From positions 1 to 47,622 of the forward strand of contig JAQGDQ010001318.1 in the NCBI GenBank assembly GCA_030141605.1: a stretch of DNA of 47,622 nucleotides, in the 5' to 3' direction. Below, piece by piece: positions 12,890-47,622 of this stretch. Made by a program: the position numbers and the translations under genes. The stretch is from Tubiluchus corallicola. Its lineage: Eukaryota; Animalia; Priapulida. The notes below the pieces were generated by a model. That model was not told the origin of the DNA, did not search any database, and saw only the letters and a program-made list of their open reading frames with translations. How positions within the stretch are numbered: position 1 is the stretch's first letter; each line of letters opens with the position of its first letter.

Positions 12890-13319
12890 TACCAAGTCTT
12901 AAACTGTAGGTGAAAACAATCCACTCTTTAAAATATTGAAAGGAAACATACTATTTTTTCAAAAGTAAACTTACGAGAATTATTACAACACCAACACAGT
13001 TTCACGTTGACGCCACTAGTTCTTCATTGTTACATGCATTTCACCATTCGCTAGTTAGACGGGAACTAGCGTCTGCATTTCGGAAACGCATTGCACAATT
13101 ATTAATCTACTGCGTTTAAAAACAGATTTGTATTTGTAGGGACGTGTCCTGTATATCTTGTTTATTTAAGTGTGTAATTTGTTAATTGTATTTGTGTTTA
13201 CGCTTGTGAAACAAAGCGTTTTCTATTATTAATAATAATAATAATATTGTTGTTGTTATTATTATTATTATTGTTATTATTATTGTTATTATTATTGTTG
13301 TTGTCAGTATTATTATAAC

Positions 13320-13358
<39 letters not shown>

Positions 13359-13393
13359 TATTATTATTATTATTATTGTTATTATTATTATTA

Positions 13394-13453
<60 letters not shown>

Positions 13454-14380: not shown

Positions 14381-14450
<70 letters not shown>

Positions 14451-14466
14451 GTTATTATTATTATTA

Positions 14467-14559
<93 letters not shown>

Positions 14560-15382
14560 GTAAACAACCTAATGCCAGCTTTCGGAAATACTATATTGAA
14601 TGTTTCATTAAAAATAAACAACTAAATATACGAAACCGTAATAGTAAACAAAAAACAAACAAACAATAAATACGGTGACAAATCGCTTTGGAAAGCTCTG
14701 GTAATTTACTGGCACACGCCTCCGCTTCAAGTAAAATCTGCTAACAGCCAAAACTGTTTAAAGTGCAGTAACAGATGATATATTAACTTGCAAAATCAAC
14801 CTTCATAAATTAAGGCAAATAAAAAACTATATAATTGTAACTTGGCAGCTTTCGTGCATTAAAATAAAACATGTTTTCATACTAGTAAAAAAAACTTCCT
14901 CAATCCTCATTCGTCAACAATATGTTTACACGAAGTCCTGAGATGTTCATTTAAATTTAGACAAAATTAGATAATAACGTTCTTATATTATAATCATCAC
15001 TATAGATTATATGATGTAAACAGCTGTAACATTTTTAAAGCAAAGCCGGACCCAATCTAAAGCTGTAGGTCAAAACAATCTACTCATTAAAGTATTGAAA
15101 GGAAACATACTGTTTTTTTCTCAAAAATGACTTATCACAGAGAAAATTATTACCACACAAAAACAAAATTTCACGTTGACGCCACTAGCTCTTCGTTGTC
15201 ACATGCATTTCACCATTCGCTAGTTAGACGGGCACTAGTGCCTCCATTTCGGAAAAGCATTGCATAAAAAAACAGGTGCTGTACCACTCAGTTCAGATGC
15301 ATTAGTTTGTGACGAACTTCACACGTTTGACAGCTCATGCGTGAGCACAGCAGTAAATTTGAAATTTAAATTTTTATTTTAA
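12890..15382 (+). repeat. ~1.1-kb tandem segmental duplication: MITE fragment - X - MITE fragment - X - MITE fragment; X contains (TAT)n/(AAT)n tracts
   Basis: 13099-13928 and 14160-15035 are near-identical apart from microsatellite length; three left-end fragments of the Kolobok-like element mark the junctions. Confidence 0.85.
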
Positions 15383-20561: not shown

Positions 20562-20636
20562 TCAGCTCGGTTCGGATTTTGTTTTCAACAGAACGGCAAT
20601 GGCATCTTTGACTGAGTGGAAAATTATGTTCTTGAT
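20562..20636 (-). CDS. KDM3: KDM3 terminal coding exon ([24 protein letters not shown])
   Basis: tatttttcag acceptor; matches the KDM3 C-terminal KN.I.H.VKDA helix; TGA at 20562-20564. Confidence 0.94.
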   Translation of the reverse strand: MKNIIFHSVKDAIAVLLKTKSEPS

Positions 20637-20741
20637 CTGAAAAATACGAAAAAAATCAATACGTCATTTTCACGATTCAAACAGCCTAACACACAGAAAC
20701 ATAACATGCAGAAATGCTCTCCCCCCTCTCTCTCTCCCTTC

Positions 20742-20777
<36 letters not shown>

Positions 20778-26700: not shown

Positions 26701-29700
26701 AGCTTGAAATGCGACAATTTAGGCTACTAGTAAGCAGAAAATCTTTTTGTGTTTACGATTTTATTAAGTTTATGTATAAACTTTCATATGTTTGTTTACT
26801 AATCACAACATTAAAATTACATGTGTTTGCTTCGTTTTACACAGTATTAAAACAATGGCTAAAAATTTTCTGAAGCAGTACCGCCACTAATTTCAGCTAC
26901 GAGCCACCAATGCTCAATGTAATAAGTTGTTCTGTAATATTACTCATTGTTTTTTGTAGCACCCTGTATATCACAAAATGCTGTAGCCTTTAACACTTTG
27001 ACTCACGGTGATGAATGCAATTCTTCTGGGTGACGAAAATAATCATTTTTCCACCGAATCTAAGAATAAAGTATTAAGGACAGTCGCTAATCTAAATCTA
27101 TCATAAACTAACCAGGTTAAAGTTTCTAAGAAGTCGACGCACATTGCCACGTTCTTTGCAAAAAAAAATTTTCAAATTACATAATCTATTACCAGTCACA
27201 TACACGTCGGCGCGTGCGCGCATGTGCGTGTGTGTGCATGTGCGTGTGTGTGAGTGTGCTCTCAAAGGCGTGTTCTAAGCGCTCCCATCTGGTAGAGTTA
27301 CTCGCTGTATAAGCATTTCAGTACTTATCAAGAACTAAAGGAAGCAAGCTCAGGTAATTTTGTCATGAAACTCCCAGGCCTGTGCCAGATGGCCTGTTTG
27401 GAGCAAAAAACACTGACACATAATCTGTTTAAATCTACATCGTAAAATCGCACACATACTGAACAACGCGATAAACTTTTAAATTGTGCAAAGAAAGCCG
27501 CACGAAACGATGTCGACTTGCTAAAGGAAGAAGCAGAACAAGCAAAGAAAAGAAAAAGAAAGACAGGTGCTCTACAAGTAGGTCTACGGGAGGGAGCCTC
27601 CTCTTACCTTGTGCTGCACGCCTCCAACCTGGCAGCAAATCCTCAGTTTCAGCTAAAGCGTAAAGCAAGCAATAAGGTAAGCAACATAAAATCCGTAAGC
27701 GTAACTCAGCAATGCACAGAAGGTAGGGGCGAGCATTTTGCGACAGATGGCGAATTCGAATCAAATCGATTTGTGATTTTGAAACTCGAATCGAACAGAA
27801 TTTCAGCATTTTCGAATTCGAATTCCATTTTATGGGGTTTCCCACAGAATTTTAAGATAAATTTCCATGACTGTTCCCTGACCAAATATTGATTTTCCAT
27901 GACCAAGAGAAGCAGAAATTGCATTACCAGTACACATATTCAAACATTTTTGTGTCAGGACATTCATTATGTGTCGGCCAATCATTATTTTAGGAACAGA
28001 AATCGAAAATGGAAGCCTGACATGGCAAAATTTTACTTGAACACGAATTACTGAAAAATACGCTTGGAAAAATATCCGTTCACGGTGATTATCTTTGTAA
28101 CACTTTTCAATTTTCCGGACTTTTCGCCCCATTTTCATCATTTTCCCTAAATTTTTCCTCTTTTCCCTGACTTTTTCATAACTATCCAAGATAGCCTGTA
28201 TTTTCAAGGATTTTTCAAGATTTTCCCCGACTGTAGGATCTCTGATTTTAAGGACTGTTCCAGTAAATTTTCGAATTGCTAATAAAAAGCGGTCTCACAA
28301 AGATCGTGCATACTGCCAGTTTTGCAATGCAGCAAAACCACTAATAATTTCTTTAAAAATTGCTCACAGTTAAATTGTGCTGAAGGCGTGATGCTTCAAA
28401 CATTTTAATGATAAAGAACGTATGTAGCTAAATTGCTGAATTATTCGAATTTATAATTTTAGCTTTGAATAGAATTTGACCTAAAAAACTCATATGAATC
28501 GAATTCGAACGGATGATGCTCGCCCCCTAATTAACGAGTGAAACAAGTGCAATAGGCCGGTGATGATACGTTAAGTTTATCTTGCACAGAAGCCATGGCA
28601 AAGATTCATTTTTACAGCCAAGGCAATGCAAGTGATTCGAAGCCATGCATATTACAATACAAACCTTTCTTTTCTGTTTTCGTTTCTATTTCAAATTTTC
28701 CAGAAAGCATTACTACCAGTTCACCTTTCTCGGAGAAAAGGATTTTATAAAAATTTGGGAACTCGAATTAGTTGGTATTTTTTCTGTCTGGAGTGAAGTT
28801 TACCATTCTTCACTAGAAAACAGGACATGTGTTCACCTTAAATGAAAGAACAAGTCACTCAGTATGCTGGGTTTATTTTACTGCTATCACTTAAACTGTT
28901 TGTGGTGTGCTAAATGAAAGGACAAGTCACTCAGCATGTTGGGTTTATTTTACTGTTATCACTTAAACTGTTTGTGGTGTGCTAAATGAAAGGACAAGTC
29001 ACTCAGCATGTTGGGTTTATTTTACTGTTATCACTTAAACTGTTTGTGGTGTGCTAAAGGAAAGAACAATTCACTCAGCATGTTGGGTTTATTTTACTGT
29101 TATCACTTAAACTGTTTGTGGTGTGCTAAATGAAAGGACAAGTCACTCAGCATGTTGGGTTTATTTTACTGTTATCACTTAAACTGTTTGTGGTGTGCTA
29201 AAGGAAAGAACAATTCACTCAGCATGTTGGGTTTATTTTACTGTTATCACTTAAACTGTTTGTGGTGTGCTAAATGAAAGGACAAGTCACTCAGCATGTT
29301 GGGTTTATTTTACTGGTATCACTTAAACTTTTTGTGGTGTGCTAAAGGAAAGGACAAGTCACTCAGTATGTTGGGTTTATTTTACTGTTATCACTTAAAC
29401 TTTTTGTGGTGTGCTAAATGCACCATTTTCCTTCAGGTGATGAACAATGTCATTGGTGACAGAATGGGCGATAAAAACGGGAGCACTCAAGCGTAAAATG
29501 ACCGGGACTTTAAAGTAATTTCACTAATGACATGAGGCGCTTATTGCAGTCTTATTACAAAATCCTAAAGTTTTCTGCAAACAATGAAATAAGTCTAACT
29601 TCCCGGGAGGCTTAACTTTTCCTTTAATTTATATGAAATAGTCAGGAGTTGACCTTTCATTTAATTTATATGAAATAGTCAGGAGTTGGCTTCATTTAAT

Positions 29701-32700
29701 TTATATGAAATAGTCGGGAATAATGCCTATTTATAGTAACCATAACTTATAATGTCTTCAAGTGAGAAAAAAATAAACAGCTCCACATTCAACTGCATGC
29801 ACGCTCGGGGTGGAAAATGTTTAAATGGAAAATCGATAAAAACCTAAAATGTGGTCAGCGAGTTCCATAAATTTTTTTTTAAATAAACATAAACGATAAC
29901 AGAAAACAAAGGCAGTGCAAACGGCAGTTAGTTTGCGATGTTTGCATTGAACCAGTGCGAAAATTTTACGCACAAATCTTGAAATCTCATGAACGCATGT
30001 CAAAGGACAGATGCAGTAAACAAAGTTCGTATATGGACAGTGACAGCATTGCTTATTTAACCACTAAAAAACAAAACGTTTTCATTTGTGCTTCCTGGGC
30101 CATTGCATTTGAGCCCCAGTAGCAGACAAAATCACAAGACAGGCACAGCTCAACATTTTTAAAGGGATTTCTATCCGACATTGAACACCAGGTACCACTA
30201 GAGCAAAGTGTGCAGGTCAAAGACCAACTAATTTTGCCTTGCCGTCTGCTTAACCCTAGGTCCCGGGTTCCCACAGAATTCTAAAACAAATTTCCCTGAT
30301 TTTTCCCAAACCAAATATTGATTTTCCACGACCAAGATAAGCAAAAATTGCATTACCAGTACACATATTCATACATTTTTGTGTATGGACATTATTCATA
30401 CATATACTGATACATAATGTGTTGGCCCATCATTATCTTTGGAACAGAAATCGAAACTGGGAGCCTGTAATATCAAAATTTTATTTGAACGCGAAACGCG
30501 CAAAAATATGTTTGGAAAAATATCAGTTCACGGTGATTATTTTTGCAACCCTTTCCAATTTCCCTGACTTTTTGCCCCATTTTCATCATTGTCCTATCTT
30601 TTTGCAAAATCATCTTTTTTCCCTGACTTTTCCATGACTTTCCAGGATAGTGTGTATTTTCAAAGATTTTCCAGGCTTCTCCCTGACCAGGAGAACCCTG
30701 ACAGGTAAAATGTTAACGACGCCCACCTTCCGCGTGATTGTAGTTTTGATCGTCCAGAGGTATGCCTACGTGCATCATCACGTTGACGGCATCCGATATG
30801 TCCAGATGAAGATTAGTGGTGCCCTCGCTGGGAAACATGGCCGAACCTGAAGATAGAAAAAATGAAATTAGGATTAAAGGAAAGCAGGACGATTGTTTAG
30901 ACTCAATCTCATTTTAACTTACTGTCCAAAATATACATTTTCTTGCCTATAAAAGTTAGCAATTGTTTCTTATATTTGAATAATTAGGTTAGAAAGTTAA
31001 TTAATGGCAACCGAACACAGCTATTGCTTACGTCAGAAACTAACAACAGTTTGTGCAATGGCAGGCGTCTTCCCTTGCGCTTCAAGCAAGTTTGCATAGA
31101 TGTTACAGTACTTTTTAATTGCATGTTACGAAAAATGGGCTTTACATCATATGACGTCTGAAACTAACACTGCAGTTCATGATCATTCTTATCACGGTAC
31201 CGCCTTCTATTTGACGGCCATGCGCATGTGACAAAAAGGTGCCGCTGCCAATCTTAGTAGATTCACTGAACCACGCGTAGCTTTGAAAGTTAAACAAAAT
31301 TTCTGTATCTGAAGTAGTTATTATTTAATCTAAGCTTTGATTTAAAAAAAGCTATTGTTGTTTTCAATATTTTAGAGCATTCTTTATTCTGAACTCGTGT
31401 TTACACAATCATTCTTTATGATATACATATTCATGTTGAGGGCACTCAATGCAAACCATAATAATACAGCATGAATTAATGTCAAGATGTGAACATTCTC
31501 TGATGTGAAGTATCACAGTATGAGTGTGCATTCATATTCGTATTGTAGACGACTCTTTAGCGTCATCTCCCAAAAACATATCGTAAGTATAAGTCGAGCC
31601 CAAAAATTTCACCTTAAAATCGCCTCCCAAAAATTTGACATGTACATAATTATATACGGTACATAACGAATTTATTAGAACTGAGTAATTAGCTTATAGA
31701 TTATTTAAACATACCATACGCATTTAATTAGCTTGTAATTATTAAACATACCATAAGCATTGTACATCTTTGGACCGAGATCTGGCCTGACAAAAAACTC
31801 AGGTAACCGGGCGGCAAGGTTGAAGCAGCCGTCACGACGCGTGTACTCTGGGATCGGAATTGTATCCATCAGGTTCTTAAATCTATCAAACATATCATAA
31901 TTTTTTTACATAATTACTCAGGTAATTACTGTCAAATATAATCACTCTTAAAAAACTATAATAATATATAATATAGTCTATAATATAATATATTATAGAG
32001 GTCTATAATATAGGCAGTGAATTGTGAGTAATTTTTAACTGAGGTCTAAAATTGTGTATCCTTCTCCTTTAAATTCAAGCAGGCAAAACAAAAGAACACA
32101 CTCACCTGTCCGGCATGAGCATGCTGAAGTCGTCCCCTGGTGGCCAATCTTTGAGTTTCAGCAGCATGGGTTCACCAAGTTCATCCAGCATCCGTTCTAG
32201 GAATGAAATCAGAATTTTAGGATGACTGTGACAAAACTTAAACCAATTTTCACTATTTACAGCAGCTGCAAGAAAAGTTGTCAAGCCATTCACACGTACA
32301 ACAAGCTGCAAGAGAAGTTGTCAAACCATTCACATGTACAACAAGCTGCAAGAGAAGTTGTCAAGCCATTCACATGTACAACAAGCTGCAAGAGAAGTTG
32401 TCAAGCCATTCACATGTACAACAAGCTGCAAGAGAAGTTGTCAAGCCATACAACAAGCTGCAAGAGAAGTTGTCAAGCCATTCACGTGTGCAACAAGCTG
32501 CAAGAGAAGTTGTCAAGCCATTCACATGTACAACAAGCTGCAAGAGAAGTTGTCAAGCCATTCACATGTACAACAAGCTGCAAGAGAAGTTGTCAAGCCA
32601 TTCGCATGTGTAACACGCTGCAAGAGAAGTTGTCAAACCATTCACATGTGCAACAAGCTGCAAGAGAAGTTGTCAAGCCATTCACGTGTGCAACAAGCTG

Positions 32701-35700
32701 CGAAAGAAGTTGTCAAGCCATTCACGTGTGCAACAAGCTGCAAGATAAGTTGCCAAACCATTCACATGTTGCACACTTTACTCTCAGAGAGAAGTTGTGC
32801 AACAAGCTGCAAGATAAGTTGCCAAACCATTCACATGTTGCACACTTCACTCTCAGAGAGAAGTTGTGCAACAAGCTACGAGAGAAGTGTATAATCAGGT
32901 AAAATCTCTTTGCTTTTAGATGCATTGAAAATGAACAGTAACTGTTCGAAATCAAGCAGCATAAAATTCTATTTTGAAGAAAACAAGACATGCATTATTT
33001 GCACCAGCAAAGTAAAAAACTGAAGACGAAGAAGACAACCACTTTGTAACAAAACCAGAAAGTATAAAAAATAAAAGCGGATTACTAATGAAAAGTTTGC
33101 ATTACCAGACATTTTCTCAAATCCGTTCCAGAATTTAGCCATGGGCATGTTCGGTATCGTCGTGCCCGTCTTGCAATTGATCAAGTCGTTCATTTGCTTT
33201 CCGAAGTCTCGCGTGAAACTCTCGGGCAGCCATAATTGCGGATCCAGCAGCTTGTGAACGCCCGATACGATGACAGGCTGAAAGACAGGAAACAAGGTCG
33301 CAATAAGATGCGAATGCTTTCGATCAGTTTTGCTTAAGAAGCTTGTGAGTTTAGCTGCAGTATGTCAAATCACTTAGTTAAGGGATGGTGTTAAGTTAAA
33401 CTCACAATACGTGCACAATAAGCCTGTTCACAGTTTCGTTGTGCAGTTGCTGTAGGTCAAAGGTTAAGTCACAATACGTGCACAATAAGCCTGTTCACAG
33501 TTTCGTTGTGCAGTTGTTGTAGGTCAAAGGTAAGGTGTACCACAGCAATGCGTCTCAACTACAACCGTCGCATGGCATGTGTATAAGGCAAAGCCGATTG
33601 CCGCATCAGTTCGGGAACTTGCTTAATTATCATTAGTTTCTACGTAGAGTGATTTACTAGCAGGATCTTGCTTGGAAACAAGAAAAAAATGAACTAGGTA
33701 ATGTTCTGGCTAGCTGTCAAAACTGTTATTATTACAATAGCTTGGGCTGCTAGGCATTGTTAAGTGTAGAGTGATTTACTAGCAGGATCTTGCTTGGAAA
33801 CAAGAAAAAAAATGAACTAGGTAATGTTCTGGCCAGCTGCTAAAACTGTTACTAATATAATAGCTTGGGCTACTAGGCATTGTTAAGTGTAGAGTGATTT
33901 ACTAGCAGGATCTTGCTTGCGAACAAGAAAAAAATGAACTAGGCAAGGTTCTAGCTAGCTGCTGAAACTGTTACTATCACGGCAGCAGTAACCACATATC
34001 CATAATAGAGACAGTCGAGATTGAATTACCAGAATGTCTTCATCTATGTCCTAGGGTCTGATTACCAAATACAAAATAGTAAACGACAGAAAGTTTTTAC
34101 CTGTCCTCGCTTCCACTGATCACGAAACAGCGACACATTTTTCGGGTGTCGTGGCTCGTGCAGGTGTAGTAGCCGTCCTCCGCACAGCCACGAATGAGGC
34201 ACCTCCGGATACAGGACTTTCATCATGGTGACAGTCGACGCCCTGCCCGCCTGCGACTGGAAACATTCAAAAGTTTCAAATTAGAAGAGAAAACGTGATG
34301 CGTGATGTTGACAATTCGATGAATTGATGACTACTGTAACCGTGAAACTACACTCGTATCTCGGACCTCACATCACATGGGGCGGGACATACACATGGTG
34401 AATAATTACATCGGTCAAAGGCACTGGCATCAGTCAGTTTTTTTATTAATATTGAATAACTACAACAGTCATATAACGTTGAAAACACAGAAGTTAAGCA
34501 ATGTAGAGCCTGGTTAGTACTTGGATGGGTGACCGCCTAGGAATACCAGGTGCTGTAGGCCTGCGGGATGCCCACGCTGTATTTCGACACTAGGCGGAGG
34601 AGCTGCACAAGCAGCCAACGGCAAGAGGGCGGAGGAGGTCAAGTGACCTAACGGCCATGTGTAGAGGAGTAAACCTTCCAAATCAGTAGTGGAGCCCCAA
34701 AGGCGGAGCAGTGCAGCATGCTCACTGACTCCGGCAGCTCCTGCAGCCAACCTGGTGCCAAACGTATCGCTCCGCTTTCCTTTGGACTACACCAGGGAGG
34801 AAGAAGAGGGTAGGGGGTTCCTGTTGTTTGGGCAACTCAGGATCTCCATACACCTTGCCCAGGCGTGCACCCTGGAGACGTTCAAGGATCGGACTGCTCA
34901 GCCACAGTCGACGCTGCAGCTCCATCAATGTGATCAATAACTGACTCTTTTGGCGCACACTCCATTGCCTTCCGAGACAGAAGGATGCCAGCAGCAACAA
35001 AGGGTCAAAGACAATGGCCATAAGTCAGTTTTTTTATTAATATTGAATAACTCCAAAACTACAGTACTTATTTAATGCATAATAGTCATTAAGAAATATT
35101 AAAAACCTTTACAAGAACTTATAAAATATGAAACCAGGATAAAATGTTTATTCAGCACAGAATAAAAGATAAATGATTATTGATATTTACATCTTTTAAG
35201 CATTTTTTAAGTTTCAGTACCGTGAAACTTGCATGTAAGACACCGAGGTTAGGCACTCGGATTATGTGAAAATTAGGGGCAAATGACTCAGTTACACATT
35301 AGCATAAGTTTTTCATATGAATAATGGAACCAGGCAGAGTCAATTGATTAACACGCTCATGCTCACAGATTTCGAAAAAAATCTGGTCAGTTAAAAGGTA
35401 AGCTGGATAAATACATTGGAAAAAAATGCTACTGAAAGTTTCGGTTACGATTTCGAAGAAAACGAGGTTCAACCCTGAAAAATTTTCTCAACGAATTTAC
35501 GCGATTTACAAAAATGGCACTGGTCTTCCAAAAATTCGGAATTCCACGTATCCGCGGAAAATTCTCATCCCTGGAAGACAAAAGCCAAAAATGTAAACCA
35601 AATGATTCATACCAACGGTGTTGGTGGCTGCACAAGTGGAGTTTCTGCCGGCTTAGGAGCGGACAGGTGTTGTCCAATCACCCTAGAGAGGACCGCTTCC

Positions 35701-38700
35701 AAATCAAACCCTCCTGCAGAACCCTTCTCTTTGGTAGACATACCTGAACCTGAAAATTAACATCAAAATACTTTAAAATATTTGAAAGCAAACAAATTTT
35801 TTTCCTTTCCAATGTTTCAATTTCAAAGAGACAGTTTATAGTTAGTGAAATGTTATAAGTTATAAGTTTGTTTATTTCCACTCTGCATCTAACAGTTATA
35901 ATAAAAATACAGATAATTTCACTGAAGTAAATATAAATATAAATGCAATATAATGTAGAAATTGTAAGATTCTTATGCAGAATATACATGTGCAAAGTAC
36001 ATTACAGAATAATTTTGATGCATACAGTTTGAGCCTAAAAGCATAGCTTGACAGGCCAAACTGTACGTGGAAATCTTAAAGAAATGATTAATAATTGAAA
36101 TAATGATAATATATACATAAAAGTGGGGGGGGGGGTAGTGAATGAAAGATGAAATGGAGCAAGAACTAAGAAAAACTGTGATCATGATTACAAAGTGTTC
36201 AGTAACCTGTTAAACAGACTCACGTTTGATTAAGATTACTGTGGAAAAAGAATGCAGGTGATTATACCATTATCAAACTGTGTTACTCTCAATGCTTTTG
36301 AAATATTTCTTTTCTGACGGTTTTGTTAAAAGTTGAAAGAGAGTGACTATGTTTTGAATTGCGGCTTAGTCAATTCCATAGGACTAGTGAAATACAGGAT
36401 GCTTCAAGTTCCTCGTTAACAGCAATTACAACAGGAAGCCTAACGATAATTTGGTTGCTGGACGTACAGACTACGATTCAAGAGAATTTTAGTGGCGTTA
36501 AACTTGGCTTCATTAGACGACTGCAGTGATTTTAATCTACACCCTGCATATCAGTACTTTACGGCCGTGTTCTAGAGTCGGCGTCGTAGCAGAACGCAGG
36601 CTTACAAGTTTTTTTAGGTCAGCGCCAGTGATATCATCATTATCATAATTAGCTGTAATTATCACTGAGTCGTTTTACTCAAAGTCCTTTTACACAAGTT
36701 TAATAACAGTGAAAGATGAAGTACATTGTTAAACAGCAACAAGCTGAACGAATCAGTGAAGTCGTAAGCGACCAAGACGTCGAGAAACAGACGTGAAATT
36801 ACAGGCAAGACGTTAGAGAAGCGAACAAACCGAAATGGGCGGCAATTTGTAACAAATTCGAATCTGTCTGTGTTGGCTTCACTGGTTCCGCTTTGACAGC
36901 GGCTTCTTTTCCCGATGTCGTCGCAGCACCGGCTAAATGATTGTTGCTCTTGGGAAATGCATCCTGAAAAAACAACATCCAGGGCTTATTAAGTAAGCGA
37001 ATAAAGGGCCTTAGGAGAAATCCACAAGTCGAAGACGCAGTGGGCCTGTAACTTACTGTACAGAGGCCCTAATGGCTTTAAATATACAGTAAACTGTGTA
37101 TAATTCAAACACCTGGCATTAAGCAAGTTTGGCATCACAACCAGGTGAATTACTAAATGAATTTAATTCTTAAATACATGACTCTGCAAATGTAAAAATT
37201 TTGTTTTGTCATCAAAAATTAAGCATTAAGAGAAGCGTTTGCCATTAAGAGAGTCATTTGCATTAACCGAGGCATTGATATTAATCAAGGCAATTGGCAT
37301 TAAGCGAGGCATTTGACACTAAGAGAGGCATTTGGCATTAATAGAGGCACCTGCCATTAAGAGAGGCATTTGGCATTAAGTGAGGCATGTGGCACTAAGC
37401 GAGGCATTTGCACCAACGCAACAAAAAACTCAGCTATTTCAACTACAAAACAAATGAACACTATTAATATTAATACTATTATTACTGTTATTATTATAGT
37501 AAACTCTGTATAACTCTCGGGACAGGAAAATTTGTTCGAGTTATGTAAGGGTACAAGTTAGACAATGTTCGTAAGAAAACAACGCTGACTCGTTCACCAA
37601 CGTTGGAAAATACACTGGTAACACTACAGCCTGTGAAATGACAAACTGAACCTGTCATGAAATATCAAACAACAATTTTTCTGAATAATGAAAAACAAAA
37701 TGACTGGTCCAAGTCTATTGTACTCTGACTTAATAGAATTTGGCAATAATAATATTAAGATCTAGCTATGAAACCACGTTCATGAAGCTATTCTGTGTGC
37801 AGCGTTCTGCTAAGGTAATACAAGAAATCTTGGCATTTTTGCTGAAACTAGCAGTTAGAATCGTAATGTGGTGCACACTTTCGCACATGATTTCTCACTT
37901 AGGGTGTTATAGGCAGGGATAATTTCGGTTAGATTATTATTAATTGTACCGGGAATACGGATGAGTTACGCGATAATTCGAGTTACCGATTTCGAGTACG
38001 TGACGTTTGGTAAAGAGAAACACGAAAGGGAAAATATGCTCCACGAGATCTGCTCGAGATAAGCAAGAATTCGAGTTATAACGGGTCGCATTAGTTTTCT
38101 GTAGTAATATAATGAAATATTTGAAAAAAGGTTACACTCTGGCACACCAAGAGACAAATTTGTTTCAATGAGCCTCCAAATACCAGTGGGCCCTAGGCCC
38201 ATGGTCTACATGGGCTATGGGTAAAGCCGGTCCCAAGTGAATACACACACACCTTCAAAATTCAAAATAGCAAGATTGACTAATTGTTAAGCTAAACAAA
38301 GTTTCTGTACATTTTGTTGACCATTAAAAGCCAACAGTTGATCAGCAACACAAAAGAACAGTACCTTCCCGTTCGGTCCCTGTGGATGTGCTCGTCCCAA
38401 CTTGTTGGCCGACCGCTTGATGCTGCAAGGACAATCTTCCGGAATGTTCCACTTCTGACGGGCTCTGTGAACCATTTTCCTCACTTCCCATAGCGCTGAA
38501 GAGCGAAAATATGCAAGTTTCAATACAGTTATTAAATGAATTGAGGCACAAAAGCTGCAAAACTTTTGTCCGAATGACTACCAGTTCGATTGCATGGCTG
38601 CACATATTGAAATGCAAATCACTGTTCATTACTAGATGTAAATTTTTACAGTTAAGAATAGGTTAGAAAATGTTGTTTATGATCAGCTTAATGTTGCAGA

Positions 38701-41700
38701 AGGAAACTGATGGTTTAAGTGGTCCACTAAAGGAAAAGGAGGACCCACATGGAGCAGAACAGCCGAATGTAAAATTTCTTAAAGTGCTTCTGGCACACGT
38801 AACATCTACTTCTCACATTATTATCACTAAATTGACATTTCTGGATGCAGAGCAACTTTTTTTAAATTGTATTTTTCCTCGGACTTCTTATTTGTGGCAC
38901 TGAGTATCAGAAATTTGTTTCTTTTGTAACTATAACCTCACCCGATTCAAGAATAACCGCATATTATAGCAAATCAGTTAAATTAGTTATAAGGATTCTA
39001 TTTTCTAACCTCTCCTTGTAAAAAAAGCAATTTGCATAAAAAATCAATTACAGTAAAACAGGTGAGCAAAAATACAACTAATGCCAAAAATTACTCAAGT
39101 CAGACAGAGCAAGATATGACCAGGTGAGTTACACTTACCTTTTCCAGGTATTATCACCGTCGGCATCATTTGAGCCGCATCGTGCCACCTGACCTCCTTG
39201 TTGCGGAAGAGAGTGCAAGCCAACCAGTTGTACTCGTCCCTGTCTTCGGCATGCTCGTGATCGCAGTCGCACGCCCGCCCCTCCCGCCGCCCCCGGAAGC
39301 AGTCGAGGCAGACGACGAAGCCGCAACGAGCGCACGTCCAGTGAAGGTTGAACAGCGTGGTGGCGCACACGTCGCACATTTCCCGCACTCCCTGCACGAC
39401 TCGCTTCCAAGCCGATTCTGGAGAAGTGCAATAACATTTATGAGAGATATTGACATCTGCAGACCGAATGTGGCTGCCAAAACGGGATGACAAAACGGAA
39501 TAATACTGACTGTTAAGGTCAGTTTCTGGCCTTAACATGTAGGTGGCAGCACCTATGTGAACTTACCTGTAATTTTACCTGTGAAGTTGTAAATTAGGTT
39601 GAGCCTCACTAAACATGCTTACAGAAGCCCCAGTAAACATTAAATAATGTTTAGATAAATTTATTTGTAGCATCTCTACCTGATTTGCTATAAACCAGTA
39701 TGACGTTCCAAGGATGTATTAAGTTGTTATAGCTGCACGATGTGAGTAATATTTACTTTTATTGCATTAAATTATAATAATTAGATCATTATACATTTGT
39801 AAGCAGTGAAAGCAGTCAAATTTATTATTTTCATTTTTTTTATATACAGAAATAAAAATTTCTGAGAACACCATATGCTACGAAGGAAAATCTTTTGTGT
39901 TTCCAATCACACTGACGATGATGAAGATAAAAATTCAGTTAATGGTGCTGATGATGACGATGACAAAGATGTTGGCTAATCATAATGATGATGATCACAA
40001 TGACGATGACACTGACAAAGATGTTAGCTAAGTGAACTGGCACAAATCAGTTAACCTCATTTTAAACTAGTGGCGGAACCGTTAAATAAATTATAATCAA
40101 TATGGCTTTAATGTATTTTTCAGCATAAGATTCAAACCGATACGAATTCTCTGCTCATTTTGGGAAAAATCCAGGAAAATCGTACGTACGAACGCAGCCG
40201 TCATTGCCGTAAAATCAAGCAATATGGCACTATCTTTGTGCAGATAACTAGGCGTGAGCACATCACCCTCATAAGCTCTCTAAAGATTTCTTATATTTCT
40301 TGTAAACATTTCAAACTTTTTTTTTCACCAGCTGCTTTCTTGTAAAATATGATTTTAAATTTATTAAAATTAACTACTGAATTGGCGTCGTATCTATATA
40401 ATTGATCATGAAAACACAATCAGTGTGCCACCACAATTTTAAACTAGTGACGTCGGGACGCTCCGATAAACCGAAGCTTCGAAACTGAATCCGAAACAGA
40501 GGTTCGGCTATGCTGAGGTTCTGTGTTAATTCAGATCCGACCGAATTACCCAGAGTTTTCCTTGAAAAGCACGATTTTGCTTCAACAGCAGAAGCGACTC
40601 GGAGTTATGGACTCTTTCACCTGTAAATTTTTCAGTTACTTAATTTGCTGTGTTTTTCGACAACTTAGTCTTACTTTGAAAAACGCAAGTGTTGCCATAT
40701 TCACTTTCAGCGTCTGTCCAAAGCACGAAATCCTTCAACAAATATGTTAAGGTTTCTTGTATTATTTTAGCGCACAACGTGGCTTAGATATTTTACTTCA
40801 AGCAGATTTTTTAACAACGTGTGTAGATAAAGGCAGCCCTAAGCCGTTCGAATAAGACTCGGTTTACAGAAACACCTAAAAAATTCAGATTCGAATTCGA
40901 TTCGGAATAGAAAATTATGCGAAAATGAGATTCCCATTTCATCCAGATTCGAAAATTGCTTTAAACTGAGATTCGGATTTGAGGTGGATTCAAAAATTAT
41001 TATAAAATGAGATCCGTCATTTCAGATTTGTCACATCCCTATTTTAAATGATATAAAATAGTACACAACCCACTGACTCAGTTTGCCAAATGGTTGCTAA
41101 GCAACGGATTTTTGAAAGCAGATGCGATTCATTAACGTATATGGCATTAGGCAAGGAAAACAAACCACGACTCACGTCTGCATCTCGTCTTCCACGTCAG
41201 TGCCTCTTTCTCCTGCTCCACGACCTCGCAAAACTGATTGCCGATGTTCATCAAGATGTACTTGGACATTTCGGCGTCCAGCTTCGGATGCGGAACGTAG
41301 TCGGGATGCGGCAGCCAATGACGAAAGTCGTCCTCTAGAGCATCACCCGGCTCAGAAAAACCAGCCGTAGCCATCGAGCCATTTTCTTTTGTTGCTAGCC
41401 TGGAAACAGAATGTTAATTGCATCAGGAGTTTAATGACCCATTTAATAGACAAAATAGTCGATCTCTACAACATTTATGACATTAAAGCCACTAAATGTT
41501 TAACCCGTTCAGGAGAGCATCATTCAAAACAGGCCATATAAGTCCCATGACTTCTGCTACTGTATGAGCACAGACATAACTAAATGATTACAAAACAGGT
41601 ACCGTTCTATTCAGGAGAATCTTCGACATCCAATCATGGTAATTGTTTAAACATTTATAAGTGATTTAATTGGATCAAATTAAGTAAAACACGCCCTTTT

Positions 41701-44700
41701 CAGGCACTCCAACTTAGCCTATTGAGTAGCTTAGTCTGGTGTACACTTGTGTGATCGTACACACTATTTTATGGATCACCTGCTTGCTACACCCCAAGAA
41801 AACCGTCTGCTGTACAGAGTTCCAGGAAAAGCCAATCAACCAGCCAAGGACAAATTAAGGTCGTTTCATTTTTTAGCAGACGTCTCTTTAAAAACAGAAA
41901 AGACTTAAGGCCAAAGAGTATCAGAGTGTTTTGTCTGGACAGTTGAAATTTTTTGCATTAACCAATTTCACAAACGCTGCAGATACAAAAAGCTTTTTTC
42001 ATTTTTTTCATCAAAAATCGATTTTTAATTTGTTTAAGGTATGCATGTGCATTTCATACGTAATTTTACGTGAAATTTCATTGGGTGAGGCATAGAAACA
42101 TACAAAAGTTATCAAATATAGCATAATCGCTGCTTAGTGAAAGCAGTTTTTCATGAACCCATGCAAAATGCAACAAATGCTTATGGTTCTGAAAGGAGTT
42201 GAGCTTTCAAATGGCCAATACATGATTCTGACACATCAAATCAGTCACAAATGACAGTTAAAAATCTCCCACTTCACTACTCAAAATTTAGCATGTAGCA
42301 TCGCTGTTCTGGCATTCTATTTCTACTCATAATTATGACTTCACCAGGTCAGTTACCGTATATACTCGCATATAAGCCGAATTTAGAACTATAAAATACA
42401 ATACTGAAATCAGGGGGTCGGCTTATATGCGCATGAAACAAAATGAACACAAGGACAGACACTAATGCCAATTTTCCAGCCACACATTTTCATCGCTATC
42501 TGACTTTATTTGGTTGTGTGTCACCCAATGTATAATTTCTTCTAGTATGTAACATAAAAGTAAGCATTTTACATCTTTATAGTAAAAGATTTCTATGAAC
42601 CAAAAATACCCAATTAACAAAATGTGACAAAAAGGGATCAATTTTGTTGATTGGGTATGGAGTAAAATTAGACAAGTTGATGGTCGGCTTATATACGGGT
42701 TTTTGCAAAAACTGGCCATTTTAAAGCACTTTTAGGGGGTCGGCTTATATGCGATGTAGGCTTATATGCGAGTATATACGGTAATTCCAAATGCCACATC
42801 AAAAATAATTGATAAAATGTGTAATGAGCCTTTTCAGAGGTCAGTGATTGATGACGATCGTGAAAAGGTGGTTAAGTGTAGCAGACAACGCATTTGTGTA
42901 CATTTGACAATGCCTCGCAGCACAAATGATTTTAGTATGCTATTAGCGATTTTGAAATAGGTTTTTAAACAAGTTAAATTACTAAGAACTTTCTTTTCTA
43001 ATCAGATCAATCTTTCAAGAAGGTAAGCACAATGCTAAGTTTTATGACTTTGTGAGGATATTTTTTTGGGACAAACTTTACAATTGTCCTTTCTTTCCCT
43101 TTAAGACTTCAAACAGCCAGAAATTCAAGTAGAATAACGAACTCATTCATGTGTTACAAATTTTTAACGTCATTTTGGAAATACGTTTGAAAATTTCTAC
43201 GTTTATCTCAAACCCGAACTTCGTCTGCGCCATCTTTAATTTCGTCAACATCGCTGGATGACAAAAATTCGACTTACTTTCGAAAAGCATAAAACCTGCA
43301 AAAGATGCTGCCGGGGTCCTTGGTGTTTCGCAAGACTTTGCACTCCCTACATCGGCTGACCTTCGCTTTTATCTCTTGACAAGCGCTGCACTGAAGAGAC
43401 GCGTTCAAACTCAAAGCGTTCTTAACTTGCTTCGACTTCACGAAACAGTCGCTAGCAACAACTAAAGAAGCAATGGTAAAATTAGAACATTGTTAGAACA
43501 ATGATAAAATCAGAACATTGTTAGAAGAAAGGTAAGATTAAAACATTGTTAAACAATGGTAAAATGACTAACATGCATTTACAATGACCATGAATGAGAT
43601 CAAAAGGTCCTGGTATTAAGGTATTAACAATTGCGAACAGTGATTAGAAACAATGTAAGTATTATCATGATGACTAGAAACAATCGTAAGCATTAACTAC
43701 GTAATAACTGGAAACAATGGTAGGCCTAAACTGCGTAATAACTGGACATAAATGTAGGCATTAACTACGTAATAACTGGAAACAATGGTAAGCATAAACT
43801 ATGTAATAACTGGAAAGAATGGTAAACATTAACTCTGTAATAACTGGAAACAATGGTAAGCATTAACTACGTAATAACTGGAAACAATGGTAAGCATTAA
43901 CTACGCAATAACTGGAAACAATGGTAAACATTATCTACATAATAACTGGAAACAATGGTAAGCATAAACTACATAACAATTGAAAACAATGGTAAGCATT
44001 AACTACGTAATAACTGGAAACAATGGAAAGCATTAACTACGTAATAACTGGATACAATGGTAAATATTAACTATCTTGTGATAACCAGAAACAACGGTAA
44101 GTGTTAACAGTCACATGATTATTACAAACAATTGTATTAAGCAATGAAATTTGCAATTCCTGGCATCAGAAATCAAAATAAAGAAATAAATATCATATAT
44201 TTTTGCAGTAGATCTCTGGATGTTTTGAGTCTCTGTCGAAAGATTTCTTAGCAAGCGGTAGATAGAAATTAAGAGCAGGACCAACCGAGACTGAAAATTG
44301 AGTTATTCAAAAGAGGCGAGCATTTTTTATCAGAAAGCGAATTGAAACAAACCAGTTATTACGTAGTTAATGCTTACCATTGTTTCGTGTTATTACGTAG
44401 TTACTGCTTACCATTTTTTCCAGTTATTATGAAGTTAATGCTTACCATTGTTTCCAGTTATTACGTTGTTAATACATACAACTGCTTCCAGTTATTACGT
44501 GGTTACTGCTTACCATTGTTTCCAGTTATTACATAGTTAATGCTTACCATTGTTTATAGTTATTACATTGTTAATTTGTTTCATATCGGAACAATTATGG
44601 ACATTATTATCGTAAAATTAGGCAAAAATTTAACAAAAAAAACAGATCTTTACCTTGTTTTAAAGGCTCCTCTTCAATTTCTATCTTTTTGACGCACTTT

Positions 44701-46166
44701 TGTTTCTTGCTGTTTATACTGGCACGTCTTTGAACAGTCACATACTTGGGTTCTTGGACGTTGCCAACATCTTTTTTCTTCATCCCTGGAAGAGATTTCT
44801 CGGCACTGCTCTTTCGTTTCTGAGTAACTGGCACCGTTTCTGGTTTCTGGTTCACGGTGCCGCCATGGTTTAAATTGTTGAACGATTTTGCAGGTAAAGC
44901 ATGATCAGTTTTAGCGCTTTCTCTGTTTTTGATTTCGGTTTCGAATTTTAAACTAGCCTGCGAATAAGGAGAAATAATTGTTTGAGCACCAGGAATGCTC
45001 ATTTGAACACTGAGCGACTGTTGTTTTTCCTCCACTTCTTTTTCTTCTTCTTCCTCCCCGCTGGCGTCCATGTGGTCCTCGATTGTGTCAATCTTAGACT
45101 TGTCCCCGTCCATTTTACGAAACTTTTTCAGCGAGTCCGGTTGCTTACCGCTCTTCTTCTTACGCGGAGGGCGGCTATCCCGACTGTGCTCCGATTCGCT
45201 CTCGGACGAAGTCGTCGACGACGTCTGTATCTGCAGTTGAGACGACGGCACTCTCTTCTTCGCCGACTTTTTTCCCAGCTTCTGCGTAACTTCGATGGCC
45301 AGCTCGCTGGGGACAACTGCGTGTTTGGCGGTCGACGGGCTTTGCTTTTCCGTCGGTTTACCAGAGCAGTCGACGAAGCACGGTCGCGTCTGCTCGTTAA
45401 CGATTGCCACGGGTTTCACAATTGCGGAGTTCGATTTCTCCGGCACTTTACTGGAACAGTTAACAAAACAAGGTCGAGTTTGCTCGCTAACAACTAAAGT
45501 AGGTTTGACCATGGTTGAATCTTGTCTATCTATTCGCGCGTTAGAACAACTGACAAAGCATGGACGAACCTGCTCGCTAACGACCACAGCCTGCTGGGTA
45601 ACGACAGCATTCTGATTTTCTTGCACTTTATCAGAACAGTCGACAAAACACGGCCTGATCTGCGGCGATGCTATGCACTGATGAGAGGCCGCTAGTATCT
45701 GCTGATCGTTCAACTTCTGCAGCTTTATCCGGGCGTGCTGAGCGGCTTCGGCCGCTTTAAAATCCGCATCGTCCGGTACGCATGTCAGACCGATGTTGCT
45801 GACGTGTGGATTAGAGACGAACTGCGTAAACTGATTGACAAACGACGCTGCGGCAGGTTGAGGCTGCGACACGATCGTGTGCGAGTAGACTTTGATGTCG
45901 TCGTCGACGATCGCATGCGGATGTGCGACCGGTTGAAGCTGCAGAGTCTGTCGCTGTTGATAAGCTTTCATAAACGGCCCAACAAGCTGCTGATATGAGG
46001 AGGAAGTTTTTGCAGGCGGGTTCGTTTTTCTACTCATGTCGTGGCTTCGGTTTATGGTTGTCATCCATGCAGTGAAGCTGCTCATGGCACAGCCGCTTGG
46101 CTCTTGCATCGCCTTATCAATAAAAGACTTAAAATGGTTGTTCATATTTAACATGGCATTGAACAT
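20562..46166 (-). CDS. KDM3: Lysine-specific histone demethylase, KDM3/JMJD1 family (JmjC, H3K9me1/2). 16 coding exons, about 1265 aa from ATG 46166; the true 5' end is uncertain
   Basis: Hand-spliced exons with GT-AG boundaries and consistent phases (3798 nt in total). Family motifs: CREC...[26 protein letters not shown]...[105 protein letters not shown]. Confidence 0.95.
20717..21090. repeat. CT-rich tract with ~68-bp internal repeats (GA-rich on the KDM3 sense strand)
   Basis: Direct reading. Confidence 0.85.
21600..21835. repeat. GA-rich tract (UC-rich on the KDM3 sense strand)
   Basis: Direct reading. Confidence 0.85.
21908..22042 (-). CDS. KDM3: KDM3 JmjC exon ([24 protein letters not shown])
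   Basis: cttctcag acceptor, CAG|GTTTGT donor, [12 protein letters not shown] motif. Confidence 0.96.
22340..22940 (+). mobile_element. hAT-like MITE (TIR CAGTGGCGGCTCGT), 3' end abutting the 66-bp array
   Basis: Homologous to 26402-26912 along its length. Confidence 0.65.
22938..23640. repeat. 66-bp minisatellite (9 copies plus 1 degenerate) derived from the KDM3 exon/intron junction
   Basis: AATGAAGCCATTAACTCACCTGGT recurs at 22951, 23017 ... 23479 in 66-bp steps, and its core matches the real donor at 23605-23624. Confidence 0.95.
23620..23796 (-). CDS. KDM3: KDM3 JmjC exon with distal His ligand (..[24 protein letters not shown])
   Basis: ttttctcag acceptor, CAG|GTGAGT donor, conserved sequence. 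Confidence 0.96.
24500..24810. repeat. ~103-bp tandem repeat (3 copies), probably the interior of a MITE starting near 24414
   Basis: GCYGACACTCCCTTCTC recurs at about 24522, 24625 and 24728. Confidence 0.7.
25126..25265 (-). CDS. KDM3: KDM3 JmjC exon (..[24 protein letters not shown])
   Basis: ttttacag acceptor, AAG|GTTTCT donor, [15 protein letters not shown] motif. Confidence 0.95.
26402..26912 (+). mobile_element. hAT-like MITE
   Basis: CAGTGGTTGCTC...GAGCCACCAATG imperfect TIRs; degenerate 8-bp TSD TTCAGTAT/CTCAATGT. Confidence 0.7.
27724..28529 (+). mobile_element. hAT-like MITE (TAGGGGCGAGCA...TGCTCGCCCCCTA) with TTCGAA subterminal motifs, containing a nested MITE at about 27834-28245
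   Basis: Terminal inverted repeats visible; the nested element is homologous to 30263-30701. Confidence 0.65.
28845..29418. repeat. 72-bp minisatellite, 8 copies
   Basis: Unit ..GACAAGTCACTCAGCATGTTGGGTTTATTTTACTGTTATCACTTAAACTGTTTGTGGTGTGCTAAATGAAAG. Confidence 0.95.
30263..30701 (+). mobile_element. hAT-like MITE (CCGGGTTCCCAC...GAGAACCCTG) with TTCCCTGAC subterminal repeats
   Basis: Imperfect TIRs; second copy at about 27834-28245. Confidence 0.65.
30727..30846 (-). CDS. KDM3: KDM3 JmjC exon with HxD Fe(II) ligands ([22 protein letters not shown])
   Basis: tatcttcag acceptor, AG|GTGGGC donor, NLHLD motif. Confidence 0.96.
31752..31882 (-). CDS. KDM3: KDM3 JmjC exon ([26 protein letters not shown])
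   Basis: tttgatag acceptor, ATG|GTATGT donor, [12 protein letters not shown] motif. Confidence 0.96.
32106..32196 (-). CDS. KDM3: KDM3 exon ([31 protein letters not shown])
   Basis: ttcctag acceptor, AG|GTGAGT donor, LKLKDWPP motif. Confidence 0.96.
32258..32890. repeat. 40-bp minisatellite, about 15 copies, filling most of a KDM3 intron
   Basis: Unit ACAAGCTGCAAGAGAAGTTGTCAAGCCATTCACATGTACA. Confidence 0.95.
33106..33277 (-). CDS. KDM3: KDM3 exon ([23 protein letters not shown])
   Basis: tctttcag acceptor, TG|GTAATG donor, conserved sequence. Confidence 0.95.
33402..33533. repeat. ~67-bp tandem duplication
   Basis: TCACAATACGTGCACAATAAGCCTGTTCACAG.. occurs twice. Confidence 0.85.
33644..33978. 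repeat. ~122-bp tandem repeat, 3 copies
   Basis: GTAGAGTGATTTACTAGCAGGATCTTGCTTG at about 33644, 33767 and 33889. Confidence 0.9.
34101..34256 (-). CDS. KDM3: KDM3 exon (..[31 protein letters not shown])
   Basis: tttccag acceptor, CAG|GTAAAA donor, strongly conserved motif. Confidence 0.95.
34462..34560 (+). pseudogene. 5S rRNA-derived segment (SINE head, not a functional 5S gene)
   Basis: Clear 5S sequence, but roughly 17 nt missing between AAAACAC and GAAGTTAAG, plus several substitutions. Confidence 0.85.
34462..35001 (+). mobile_element. 5S rRNA-derived SINE (SINE3 type): degenerate 5S head with internal deletion, ~440-bp GC-rich body and short (GCA/CAA)n tail, flanked by a ~50-bp direct repeat
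   Basis: 34462-34560 reads ..ACGTTGAAAACAC/GAAGTTAAGCAA..GGTTAGTACTTGGATGGGTGACCGCCTAGGAATACCAGGTGCTGTAGGC (5S box A, IE and box C kept; no T-run terminator). Direct repeats at 34413-34461 and 35003-35052. Confidence 0.8.
35613..35749 (-). CDS. KDM3: KDM3 linker exon (..[15 protein letters not shown]..)
   Basis: ttttcag acceptor, TTG|GTATGA donor; phase 1 to 0; amphipathic helix resembling the one preceding the JmjC region in KDM3 proteins. Confidence 0.78.
36831..36963 (-). CDS. KDM3: KDM3 linker exon ([20 protein letters not shown])
   Basis: ttttttcag acceptor, G|GTTTGT donor; phase 0 to 1 bridges its neighbours; poorly conserved sequence. Confidence 0.75.
37222..37412. repeat. ~19-bp minisatellite (GCATTAAGAGAGGCATTTG)n
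   Basis: About 10 degenerate units. Confidence 0.8.
38365..38495 (-). CDS. KDM3: KDM3 exon ([24 protein letters not shown]..)
   Basis: tcttcag acceptor, AAG|GTACTG donor, conserved H..R.KW.I...CPC motif. Confidence 0.92.
39139..39417 (-). CDS. KDM3: KDM3 exon, C6-type zinc finger ([38 protein letters not shown])
   Basis: ttctccag acceptor, AG|GTAAGT donor, hallmark KDM3 zinc finger. Confidence 0.96.
40068..40436 (+). mobile_element. hAT-like MITE (TAGTGGCGG...GCCACCACAA) with 8-bp TSD TTTTAAAC
   Basis: TTTTAAAC at 40060-40067 and 40437-40444. Confidence 0.55.
40445..41041 (+). mobile_element. hAT-like MITE (TAGTGACGT...ACATCCCTA) with TTCGG/TTCGAA subterminal motifs and 8-bp TSD TTTTAAAC/T
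   Basis: Flanked by TTTTAAAC (40437) and TTTTAAAT (41042). Confidence 0.6.
41176..41399 (-). CDS. KDM3: KDM3 exon ([39 protein letters not shown]..)
   Basis: tttccag acceptor, C|GTGAGT donor, conserved YIL..IG..FC..V..EKEA motif. Confidence 0.93.
42356..42781. mobile_element. Tc1/mariner-pogo-type MITE with TA TSD
   Basis: TA-CCGTATATACTCGCATATAAGCC ... GGCTTATATGCGAGTATATACGG-TA, a perfect TIR; related remnant at about 31580-31661. Confidence 0.88.
43278..43461 (-). CDS. KDM3: KDM3 exon (..[31 protein letters not shown])
   Basis: cttctttag acceptor, AA|GTAAGT donor, conserved CREC and FCRF motifs. Confidence 0.92.
43676..44573. repeat. Two 34-bp tandem arrays in inverted orientation (about 43676-44108 and 44353-44573); foldback structure
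   Basis: Unit CATTAACTACGTAATAACTGGAAACAATGGTAAG, and its reverse complement CTTACCATTGTTTCCAGTTATTACGTAGTTAATG. Confidence 0.9.
44654..46166 (-). CDS. KDM3: KDM3 large N-terminal exon (low complexity, 4 x 30-aa Cys-containing repeats, basic NLS-like patches)
   Basis: Open frame of about 504 codons; donor CAAG|GTAAAG at 44653 (phase 1) joins the next exon in frame. An in-frame TAG at 46200-46202 limits the ORF upstream. Candidate acceptors at 46236 and 46200. Confidence 0.8.
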
Positions 46167-46602
46167 CTGACGTAAATTTTCTTCGCTACGAATCTCTGAC
46201 TAGAAGTGGCACAGCAGCCCTGAGCGTTAGATGGCCTGAAAACATGAGAGCATTTTATTGCGGACCTCGTTGAGCGACAGGATGATTCGATGCCGCTGCC
46301 GCCGCAAGGAGTGTGAACGGTTTGCACGAAATTACTGAAATTTCTAAGAAGATTCAAGTCAAAGGAAACATTCCCCTTGACAGATTGCACAATTGTGCTG
46401 TATTATTGCACGCACTAATGTGCAAAAATTTATAATTTTTTTTTGCTACGTACATCGACTCATTCAAGGAACTTCAGCAAACATTCAGCTTTGGGAATGC
46501 AGCACTCTCACTAAAAGTGCTACGGTCACCATTGCTGCCAACAAGTAACGGAAGCCATTAAAAATATTGTCGTGTGACCGCTATAAAGAATGGTCATGCT
46601 AC

Positions 46603-46769
46603 CTCGTAATACAGGTTGGGTCTGTTGAACGGAGCTTTCAGGACAGGACAAGATGGTATGTTCAGCATTTTCTGCACGTCTTTAGTCACTGTCATTGTGC
46701 ACGTTGCAGTCAATCCCAAGATCGGAACTTTTGGAAACTGACGTTTCATGATCCCAAGAATCTTGTAAT
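46603..46769 (-). CDS. RECQL: Internal exon of a RecQ1/RECQL-type ATP-dependent DNA helicase (motif III to end of the first RecA-like domain)
   Basis: 167-bp stop-free exon; ttttgtag acceptor (phase 1), GAG|GTAGCA donor (phase 0). Translates (D)[55 protein letters not shown], matching the RECQL pattern DYK.LGI.KRQFP....GLTAT....FNRPNLYYE. Confidence 0.88.
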
Positions 46770-46849
46770 CTACAAAATCACATAAATGTTAAAACATAAA
46801 AAATGAAAATAACAAGATTATGGAAAATTATGATCATATTTTGGGTGCA

Positions 46850-47250
46850 TCCTATTTTACAAGCCTACATTCGCTCCAGTTTTTCCTTGTGCGATGCTAA
46901 CCAAAGATTACCCATATTGCTTGGTCATTGGATCCTACTTAATTTCTGCAAGCATTATGAAACAAACGAAGATCTACATGAAAAAATAAAAGAAGAACCT
47001 TGGACAAGAAAAATAAAAAGACGCCATTTAAGATGGATTGGGCATACGGTTAGACTACCTGATGATATTCCAGTGAAGATAGCTCTTTAACAAGCCATAG
47101 AACCAGCTAAAAACCTGCAGGGAGACAAATGTTAACATATTTAGATTTTGCACAGAAAGATTTAAACACTTCAACATTGATCCTTAGAAATAAATGCACT
47201 TGGGGCATTGCAGCGAGTAGGGAGTCCTGGCATAGGGAGGTGAACAGAAT
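46850..47250 (+). mobile_element. Degenerate RTE-clade-like LINE, 3' end of ORF
   Basis: TNEDLHEKIKEEPWTRKIKRRHLRWIGHTVRLPDDIPVKIAL followed by PAGR and A.SRESW motifs typical of RTE C-termini; interrupted by stops. Confidence 0.7.
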
Positions 47251-47622
47251 CATGTCCCTGAACGTGTGATACTCGGAGATTATCCTAAGACTGTCCACTT
47301 ACTTAAGCTTTCCATGAATCAATTCAGCCATCAATGGAGCAAAGAAAAGACAGATTGCACGCATGAATGGATTTCACACAAAAAACCTCAATGGAACATC
47401 TCTTATTTCTGTTTGGTGGCAAAAGGTGGAGAGTGTCATGCCCTTGGACGATTGAAGTGCATCACATGATCACAATTTCTGCAATGGAAGTGGTGCTGGC
47501 AAGCCACACCTGGTATTTTCTCGATTAACTGCTGTACTTGCTTGCCCGAGGGCAGGTTTCTTATATTAAAATTCTGCTTATCCAAAGTTTATAACAGACA
47601 TAATGGGTTTTCAAGAATTATG

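Follow-up and report, generated by a model that had tools for sequence, protein, structure and literature searches.

The window analysed here is the whole stretch of 47,622 nt from the priapulid Tubiluchus corallicola (contig JAQGDQ010001318.1), in which an exon of the helicase gene RECQL (RecQ1) lies upstream of a gene for an H3K9 demethylase of the KDM3/JMJD1 family, both on the minus strand. A sequence-only reading of this arrangement had proposed a fusion of the first RecA domain (RecA1) of RECQL to KDM3, a KDM3 gene nested in a RECQL intron, a RECQL exon captured by the 5' region of KDM3 or a misassembly. Our analysis resolves the window into three pieces: 1.3 kb of native RECQL locus, 305 bp found nowhere else and a KDM3 gene cut within its large exon. 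The RECQL exon and KDM3 are ordinary members of known families, and it is their adjacency that is particular to the window. The features concerned, with the evidence for each in brackets, are the following.

46770..47622, minus strand: RECQL upstream intron, with a high-copy repeat at about 46960-47270 (exon searches; depth in public run X1)
46603..46769, minus strand: RECQL (RecQ1) coding exon, spanning motif III and closing RecA domain 1 with FNRPNLYYE (homology, conserved columns, single-copy contigs)
46328..46602, minus strand: RECQL downstream intron, native over its first 275 bp, with breakpoint 1 at 46328/46327 (contigs of runs X1, X2 and X3)
46023..46327, no strand assigned: 305-bp linker, with AG dinucleotides at 46235 and 46199, an ATG at 46166 and a 59-codon Met-rich frame in the KDM3 register (no contig cover, no matches)
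44654..46022, minus strand: 3' portion of the large KDM3 exon, of low complexity, interrupted at breakpoint 2 between 46022 and 46023, in phase 0 (X1 and X2 contigs; protein P0243)
20562..43461, minus strand: remaining KDM3, with zinc-finger exons and the JmjC domain in 13-15 more GT-AG exons of open frame (profile, motifs)

The two breakpoints were defined by comparison with five of the six public runs listed (X1, X2, X3, X5 and X6), all used as contigs and none on record as RNA. X1 and X2 come from the same sample (S1) and X3 from a second sample (S2) in a different study, giving two informative samples; no record of X5 matched the window, and the three matching records of X6 (guessed to be RNA; 13 million letters) all lay on the high-copy repeat. 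Record coordinates follow the direction of the record itself, as shown by record 19 of X3. On the RECQL side, an X1 contig of 1,264 nt matches the window over 46328-46998 and then continues into 593 other letters; the X2 and X3 contigs leave from the same base with 600 and 145 other letters, respectively, and the first 30 letters past 46328 are identical in the three runs, and thus in two samples and two studies. The corresponding X1 contig at KDM3 is 2,541 nt long; it agrees with the window over 44744-46022 and carries 1,262 other letters upstream, and an X2 contig departs at the same base by six letters. Contig depth at the breakpoints is 178 (RECQL side) and 207 (KDM3 side), compared with 164-183 for other KDM3 contigs, and because these contigs are at single-copy depth, the DNA beyond the breakpoints is unique and not repeat. 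Between the breakpoints nothing is covered: depth is zero over 46037-46294 in all three runs that cover a flank, and no contig in the runs compared joins across the linker. An uncovered stretch alone is no proof of absence, and the argument rests instead on the contigs that continue into other DNA. Both flanks do so in independent data, into different unique DNA (on the KDM3 side in one sample), as a mis-join predicts, whereas the adjacency itself is present in neither of the two informative samples, which diverge at 46328 (both) and at 46022 (one), contrary to what a feature of the species would show. The window differs from X1 at 2 positions in 1,279 nt and 3 in 671 nt flanking the breakpoints. 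A local inversion or duplication within the window was considered and rejected, because neither 30-letter loose end occurs in it when up to three mismatches are allowed.

The RECQL exon is intact and bounded by both splice sites, as the sequence-only reading had it: translation and RECQ1 matches confirm 167 bp (46769-46603) between tttgtag and gtagca, without a stop codon and reading YKILG...GLTATC...FNRPNLYYE. Its E values are 2e-15 to 2e-14 against human RECQ1 chains, 1e-7 against WRN and 3e-6 against BLM, so that with motif III and FNRPNL conserved it falls nearer to RecQ1 than to WRN, BLM or bacterial RecQ. It retains 24 of the 25 columns that are conserved at 90% or more across 99 homologues and is 64-80% identical to the best 120 of 149 homologues, mostly named RecQ1. 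The likeness begins and ends at the same residues in five of five short exon-level ORFs (open reading frames) from other records, which marks the exon as an ancient unit. As had been claimed, it is the sole RECQL exon of the window and is followed by KDM3 on the same strand: tblastn with 20 RECQL proteins, run within the window, found only 46603-46769 (next-best E at least 0.18), and a profile of 60 homologues, searched against the 2,558 stop-to-stop segments of the window, gave a single match at E 1.7e-33, the next being at E 3.1. Neither method found an upstream RECQL exon within 46770-47622.

In the public contigs, the same exon behaves as part of an ordinary locus. In each run it is covered, at a likeness of at least 80%, by one contig only, which has single-copy depth, the X1 depth being 177.8 against 163.6-207.3 for KDM3 contigs, and the only difference listed, at 46657, is a synonymous Ile in a reading made by hand. 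One single-copy contig per run, together with a Cys codon that is unchanged in X1 and X2, identifies the exon as the native allele; being single-copy and near-identical to that allele, it argues against a captured or drifting duplicate. The Cys in question, at 46699-46701 (minus strand), follows GLTAT, at a position where Ala is found in 97% of 99 RECQL homologues and Cys in none; since it is common to X1 and X2, it is a native lineage change. Further upstream, the repeat remnant at about 46960-47270 is very high-copy, with an X1 depth above 250,000 across 46876-47340, and its plus-strand translation resembles the end of a LINE reverse transcriptase.

The linker between the breakpoints holds every element on which a fusion transcript would depend, since both proposed acceptors and the ATG at 46166 fall inside 46023-46327 (47% GC), the stretch without public contig cover. 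The two splice outcomes were correctly described earlier: joining 46603 to 46235 reads A-I-stop, and joining 46603 to 46199 stays in frame with KDM3. Their sequences are as given, but two points lessen their weight. The AG at 46199 belongs to the TAG by which the ORF is bounded. When the 305 bp upstream of 46022 were dinucleotide-shuffled 20,000 times, 77.5% of the shuffles had an open AG in frame, 23.5% had such an AG with a pyrimidine tract and 8.0% had 59 open codons; the corresponding values in real intron pieces, the second control, were 57%, 19% and 6%. The splice signals at the linker are weak evidence. The frame in KDM3 register, at 46023-46199 (minus strand), is Met-rich (11.9%, against 1.3% in the rest of the exon) and takes 8 of the 11 minus-strand ATGs of the linker (p 0.009). 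With a codon score of -0.048, it ranks at the bottom of the range set by 19 held-out KDM3 blocks (median 0.28), close to the true RECQL exon (0.034) and above about 95% of intron windows, and it is outscored by a different frame of the linker. The linker may have come from coding sequence of a third locus or organism, or it may be what is left of the 5' region of KDM3 itself. The linker DNA has no match in phages or plasmids (blastn), in the window itself or in Rfam, and none of its exact 26-mers occurs in metagenome, prokaryote or viral contigs; its peptide has no match in metagenome or prokaryote contigs, Pfam, NCBIfam or the ESM Atlas, and blastx against 241 fetched proteins gave none. Two candidate explanations were rejected: a weak likeness of FKSFIDK in the linker to FQSFVEK in P0243, equalled in score by 430 of 1,000 shuffles, and a restriction-ligation concatemer, suggested by five CATG sites in the linker, as neither junction lies at such a site.

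On the other side of the linker, the KDM3 frame is open from 46022 to the stop at 20564-20562 through GT-AG exons that include those of the zinc finger and JmjC domain. The exon model leaves 26 alternative open chains of 1,125-1,225 aa, and the exons near 36963 and 35749 are uncertain. A profile E of 3.5e-280, the metal-ligand motifs LHLD and PHQ, and a zinc-finger block followed by JmjC with HxD...H in one open frame place the gene in the KDM3/JMJD1 family. A full-length N-terminus with a native start was not found. Counted from the ATG at 46166, the part before the zinc finger has 503 aa, whereas the median is 854 aa among 58 homologues of at least 1,200 aa, shorter ones having been dropped, which biases the comparison towards long values; only two of the 58 are as short. 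A HMMER search of 1.84 billion representatives with the large KDM3 exon returned a single relative, P0243 (812 aa), and proteins of 283-902 aa, searched by word index with the 515-aa exon product, gave no match. P0243, a single-member Logan protein, is probably a KDM3 exon, judging from this match, in which it shares the stretch from RxCFVDCS to the acidic region at 42% over 136 aa. It has 567 residues before that motif, compared with 122-212 in the window counted from 46022, and this excess of 355-445 residues fits the 420 codons possible in the extra letters of the X1 contig. Because the P0243 version is 355-445 residues longer upstream, KDM3 looks truncated at its 5' side in the window. In a hand translation of the X1 loose end past 46022, the first 10 codons are open and Ser-rich in the KDM3 frame, an outcome with a chance of about 0.6 and weak alone. 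Within the large exon, four RPCFVxCS motifs recur with a 30-aa period at 45360-45660 (minus strand), and P0243 has one. X3 has an in-frame skip of 81 nt at 45350-45432, so this part of the exon varies in length between samples.

Four explanations other than a chimeric join deserve to be weighed against these data, and three of them would make the arrangement a feature of the species, which is unlikely even when the three are added together. A fixed RecA1-KDM3 fusion gene, switched by acceptor choice, draws on the in-frame splice from 46603 to 46199; however, both acceptors sit wholly within the unsupported 305 bp, which other samples lack and at which their contigs diverge, in-frame AGs are frequent by chance, and neither the RECQL profile against the best 120 KDM3 homologues nor the KDM3 profile against the best 120 RECQL homologues gave a match at E <= 0.01. 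In SF2 helicases, RecA1 without RecA2 is also without motifs IV-VI and the arginine finger, so the product would probably not be a working ATPase; such a fusion is extremely improbable. Hardly more credible is a normal gene structure in which KDM3 lies nested, on the same strand, in a very long RECQL intron and starts within the 305 bp. The exon is intact, no downstream RECQL exon follows in 46 kb and the ATG-rich frame could be a real N-terminus, but the contigs leave the window at both 46328 and 46022, the RECQL intron entering other unique DNA 275 bp past the donor in two samples and KDM3 extending upstream into other DNA in one, and a KDM3 of this form would be unusually short (2 of 58). 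Duplication or transposon capture of the RECQL exon into the KDM3 5' region might seem to explain a lone exon with a high-copy repeat 200 bp upstream and, next to GLTAT, a Cys that none of 99 homologues shares, Ala being usual there. Nevertheless, the exon is single-copy and near-identical to the native allele, with one single-copy contig per run over it and the Cys codon the same in X1 and X2; the linker, at zero depth, is not the end of a resident multi-copy element; and the signs of a Helitron- or Pack-MULE-type capture are missing, the exon being single-copy, the linker of zero depth and no long terminal repeat having been found around the junctions. Capture is as extremely improbable as the fixed fusion.

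The remaining alternative, which the sequence-only reading did not list, is a real rearrangement private to this haplotype, by inversion, translocation or double deletion with a 305-bp filler, that breaks the RECQL intron and the large KDM3 exon; a variant of this places RECQL upstream of KDM3 on one strand, with the linker as what is left of the DNA that separated them, perhaps the start of KDM3 itself. We consider this a serious possibility, though an improbable one on balance. It accommodates two sharp breakpoints with accurate sequence on either side and a Met-rich linker frame in KDM3 register, the informative samples are only two, and templated insertions at breakpoints are known from human genomes. 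On the other hand, S1 and at least one S2 allele lack this form; a native single-copy linker should usually appear in X1 (depth about 200), X2 or X3 and does so in none of the three; the linker peptide does not align to P0243 better than shuffled sequence does, and its codon score is at the bottom of the range of the KDM3 blocks, with another frame scoring higher; and two conserved genes would be disrupted at once. If true, the rearrangement would create a RECQL-null allele together with a 5'-truncated KDM3 under the RECQL promoter. There is a slim chance, in addition, that such a segregating rearrangement is spliced from 46603 to 46199 into a chimeric protein of the RECQL N-terminus and RecA1 with KDM3, a newborn fusion allele in a wild invertebrate; a 5'-truncated but catalytically intact KDM3 would then stand under the RECQL promoter, the filler serving as an in-frame Met-rich linker.

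The departure of the contigs from the window at 46328 and 46022 makes a chimera the likely source of the apparent fusion, and we slightly favour, over all other explanations combined, a three-piece chimera made during library preparation or assembly, and not a gene. Misassembly was accordingly the best supported of the four explanations offered earlier, although it shares that support with the private rearrangement. We propose that one long read, or one amplified or ligated molecule, carried a KDM3 fragment, a short stray fragment and a RECQL fragment, and that the assembler retained the chimeric tail at a contig tip. The species would then possess a complete RECQL gene and a longer KDM3 gene, both of ordinary form, the ATG at 46166 would not be the true KDM3 start and the two 'acceptors' would be chance AGs. 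Only 1.3 kb of RECQL sequence separates the join from the end of the window, whose length is odd, and on these grounds the join probably persisted as part of a contig tip. At neither breakpoint is the X1 contig interrupted, and the way contig graphs branch makes such continuity unexpected in a sample with both forms. As for precedent, one study put the share of chimeric reads at 0.8% in bulk HiFi data, rising to as much as 70% after amplification (10.64898/2026.06.11.730069), and the long-read assemblies of one bird contained 20 to about 700 mis-joins each, chimeric joins included (PMC8081667).

Several observations weigh against a chimeric join. Breakpoint 2 is seen in one sample only, as no X3 contig extends over 45701-46022. 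The linker is also not the only gap in X1: a second one, with flush contig ends, is at 44382-44743. Seven ATGs occur among the 59 open in-frame codons of the linker, a number reached in none of 20,000 shuffles; the excess was noticed post hoc and would not be predicted of a random stray fragment. There is no GATC in the linker and neither GATC nor CATG at either junction. Assemblers trim chimeric read ends (PMC7545148), so survival of such an end is not the rule. That the window end is a contig end is our deduction, and the contig data do not tell an artefact from a real private rearrangement. If S1 is the source of the window, an artefact is near certain; otherwise both leading readings stand.

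Thus, the observation of an intact RECQL exon upstream of KDM3 is confirmed, whereas its interpretation at the level of genes is not upheld. Full-text literature searches found no report of a RecQ-KDM3 fusion among the papers listed. The case calls for caution, as a fusion gene can be mimicked, across a junction that is missing from other samples, by an exon that is intact, an AG in frame and an open reading frame, and a gene model drawn from this window would assign KDM3 a false start. Should the junction be confirmed, it would represent a young fusion allele in which part of a DNA-repair helicase is joined to an H3K9 demethylase; even so, it would be the variant of one haplotype and likely without ATPase activity.

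The rest of the window is rich in repeats. Minisatellites occupy 1915-3798, 5804-6920, 22939-23555, 28839-29420, 32249-32769 and 43673-44575, with units of 57, 20, 66, 72, 40 and 34 bp, respectively, and the 34-bp arrays at 43673-44108 and 44352-44575 are mutually inverted within one KDM3 intron. Long ORFs across such arrays are repeat artefacts. A tandem duplication of about 1.3 kb within 12901-15264 (12901-14156 against 13954-15264, 92.7% identity) could be real or an uncollapsed join. A Pfam scan covered 78 further ORFs in 1-30712, selected from 178 listed; it gave three weak matches, all under the cut-off, and among the scanned ORFs it detected no protein-coding gene downstream of KDM3 (1-20500).

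Compared with known systems, each gene in the window is familiar. The RECQL exon matches the segment that closes RecA domain 1 in RecQ1 (PDB 2V1X, 4U7D and 7A8R), and it differs from that gene in that it stands as one exon only, with a downstream intron cut at 46328 and GLTATC for GLTATA. Similarly, KDM3 shares with the KDM3/JMJD1 H3K9 demethylases the zinc-finger block and the JmjC HxD...H ligands, at 60-67% identity over about 390-440 aa in the best 25 matches, but its N-terminal region is about 350-450 aa below expectation and its start codon is supplied by the linker. The junction resembles a complex structural variant with templated insertion in that two loci are joined through a filler of a few hundred bases, whereas neither the window nor the runs compared supplied a template for the filler. 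Published chimeric reads and mis-joins (10.64898/2026.06.11.730069; PMC8081667) differ from the window in that here there are three pieces, the middle one matching no source, yet the likeness extends to discontinuous loci brought together at sharp joins, not reproduced in independent data, that give rise to a false structural variant or gene.

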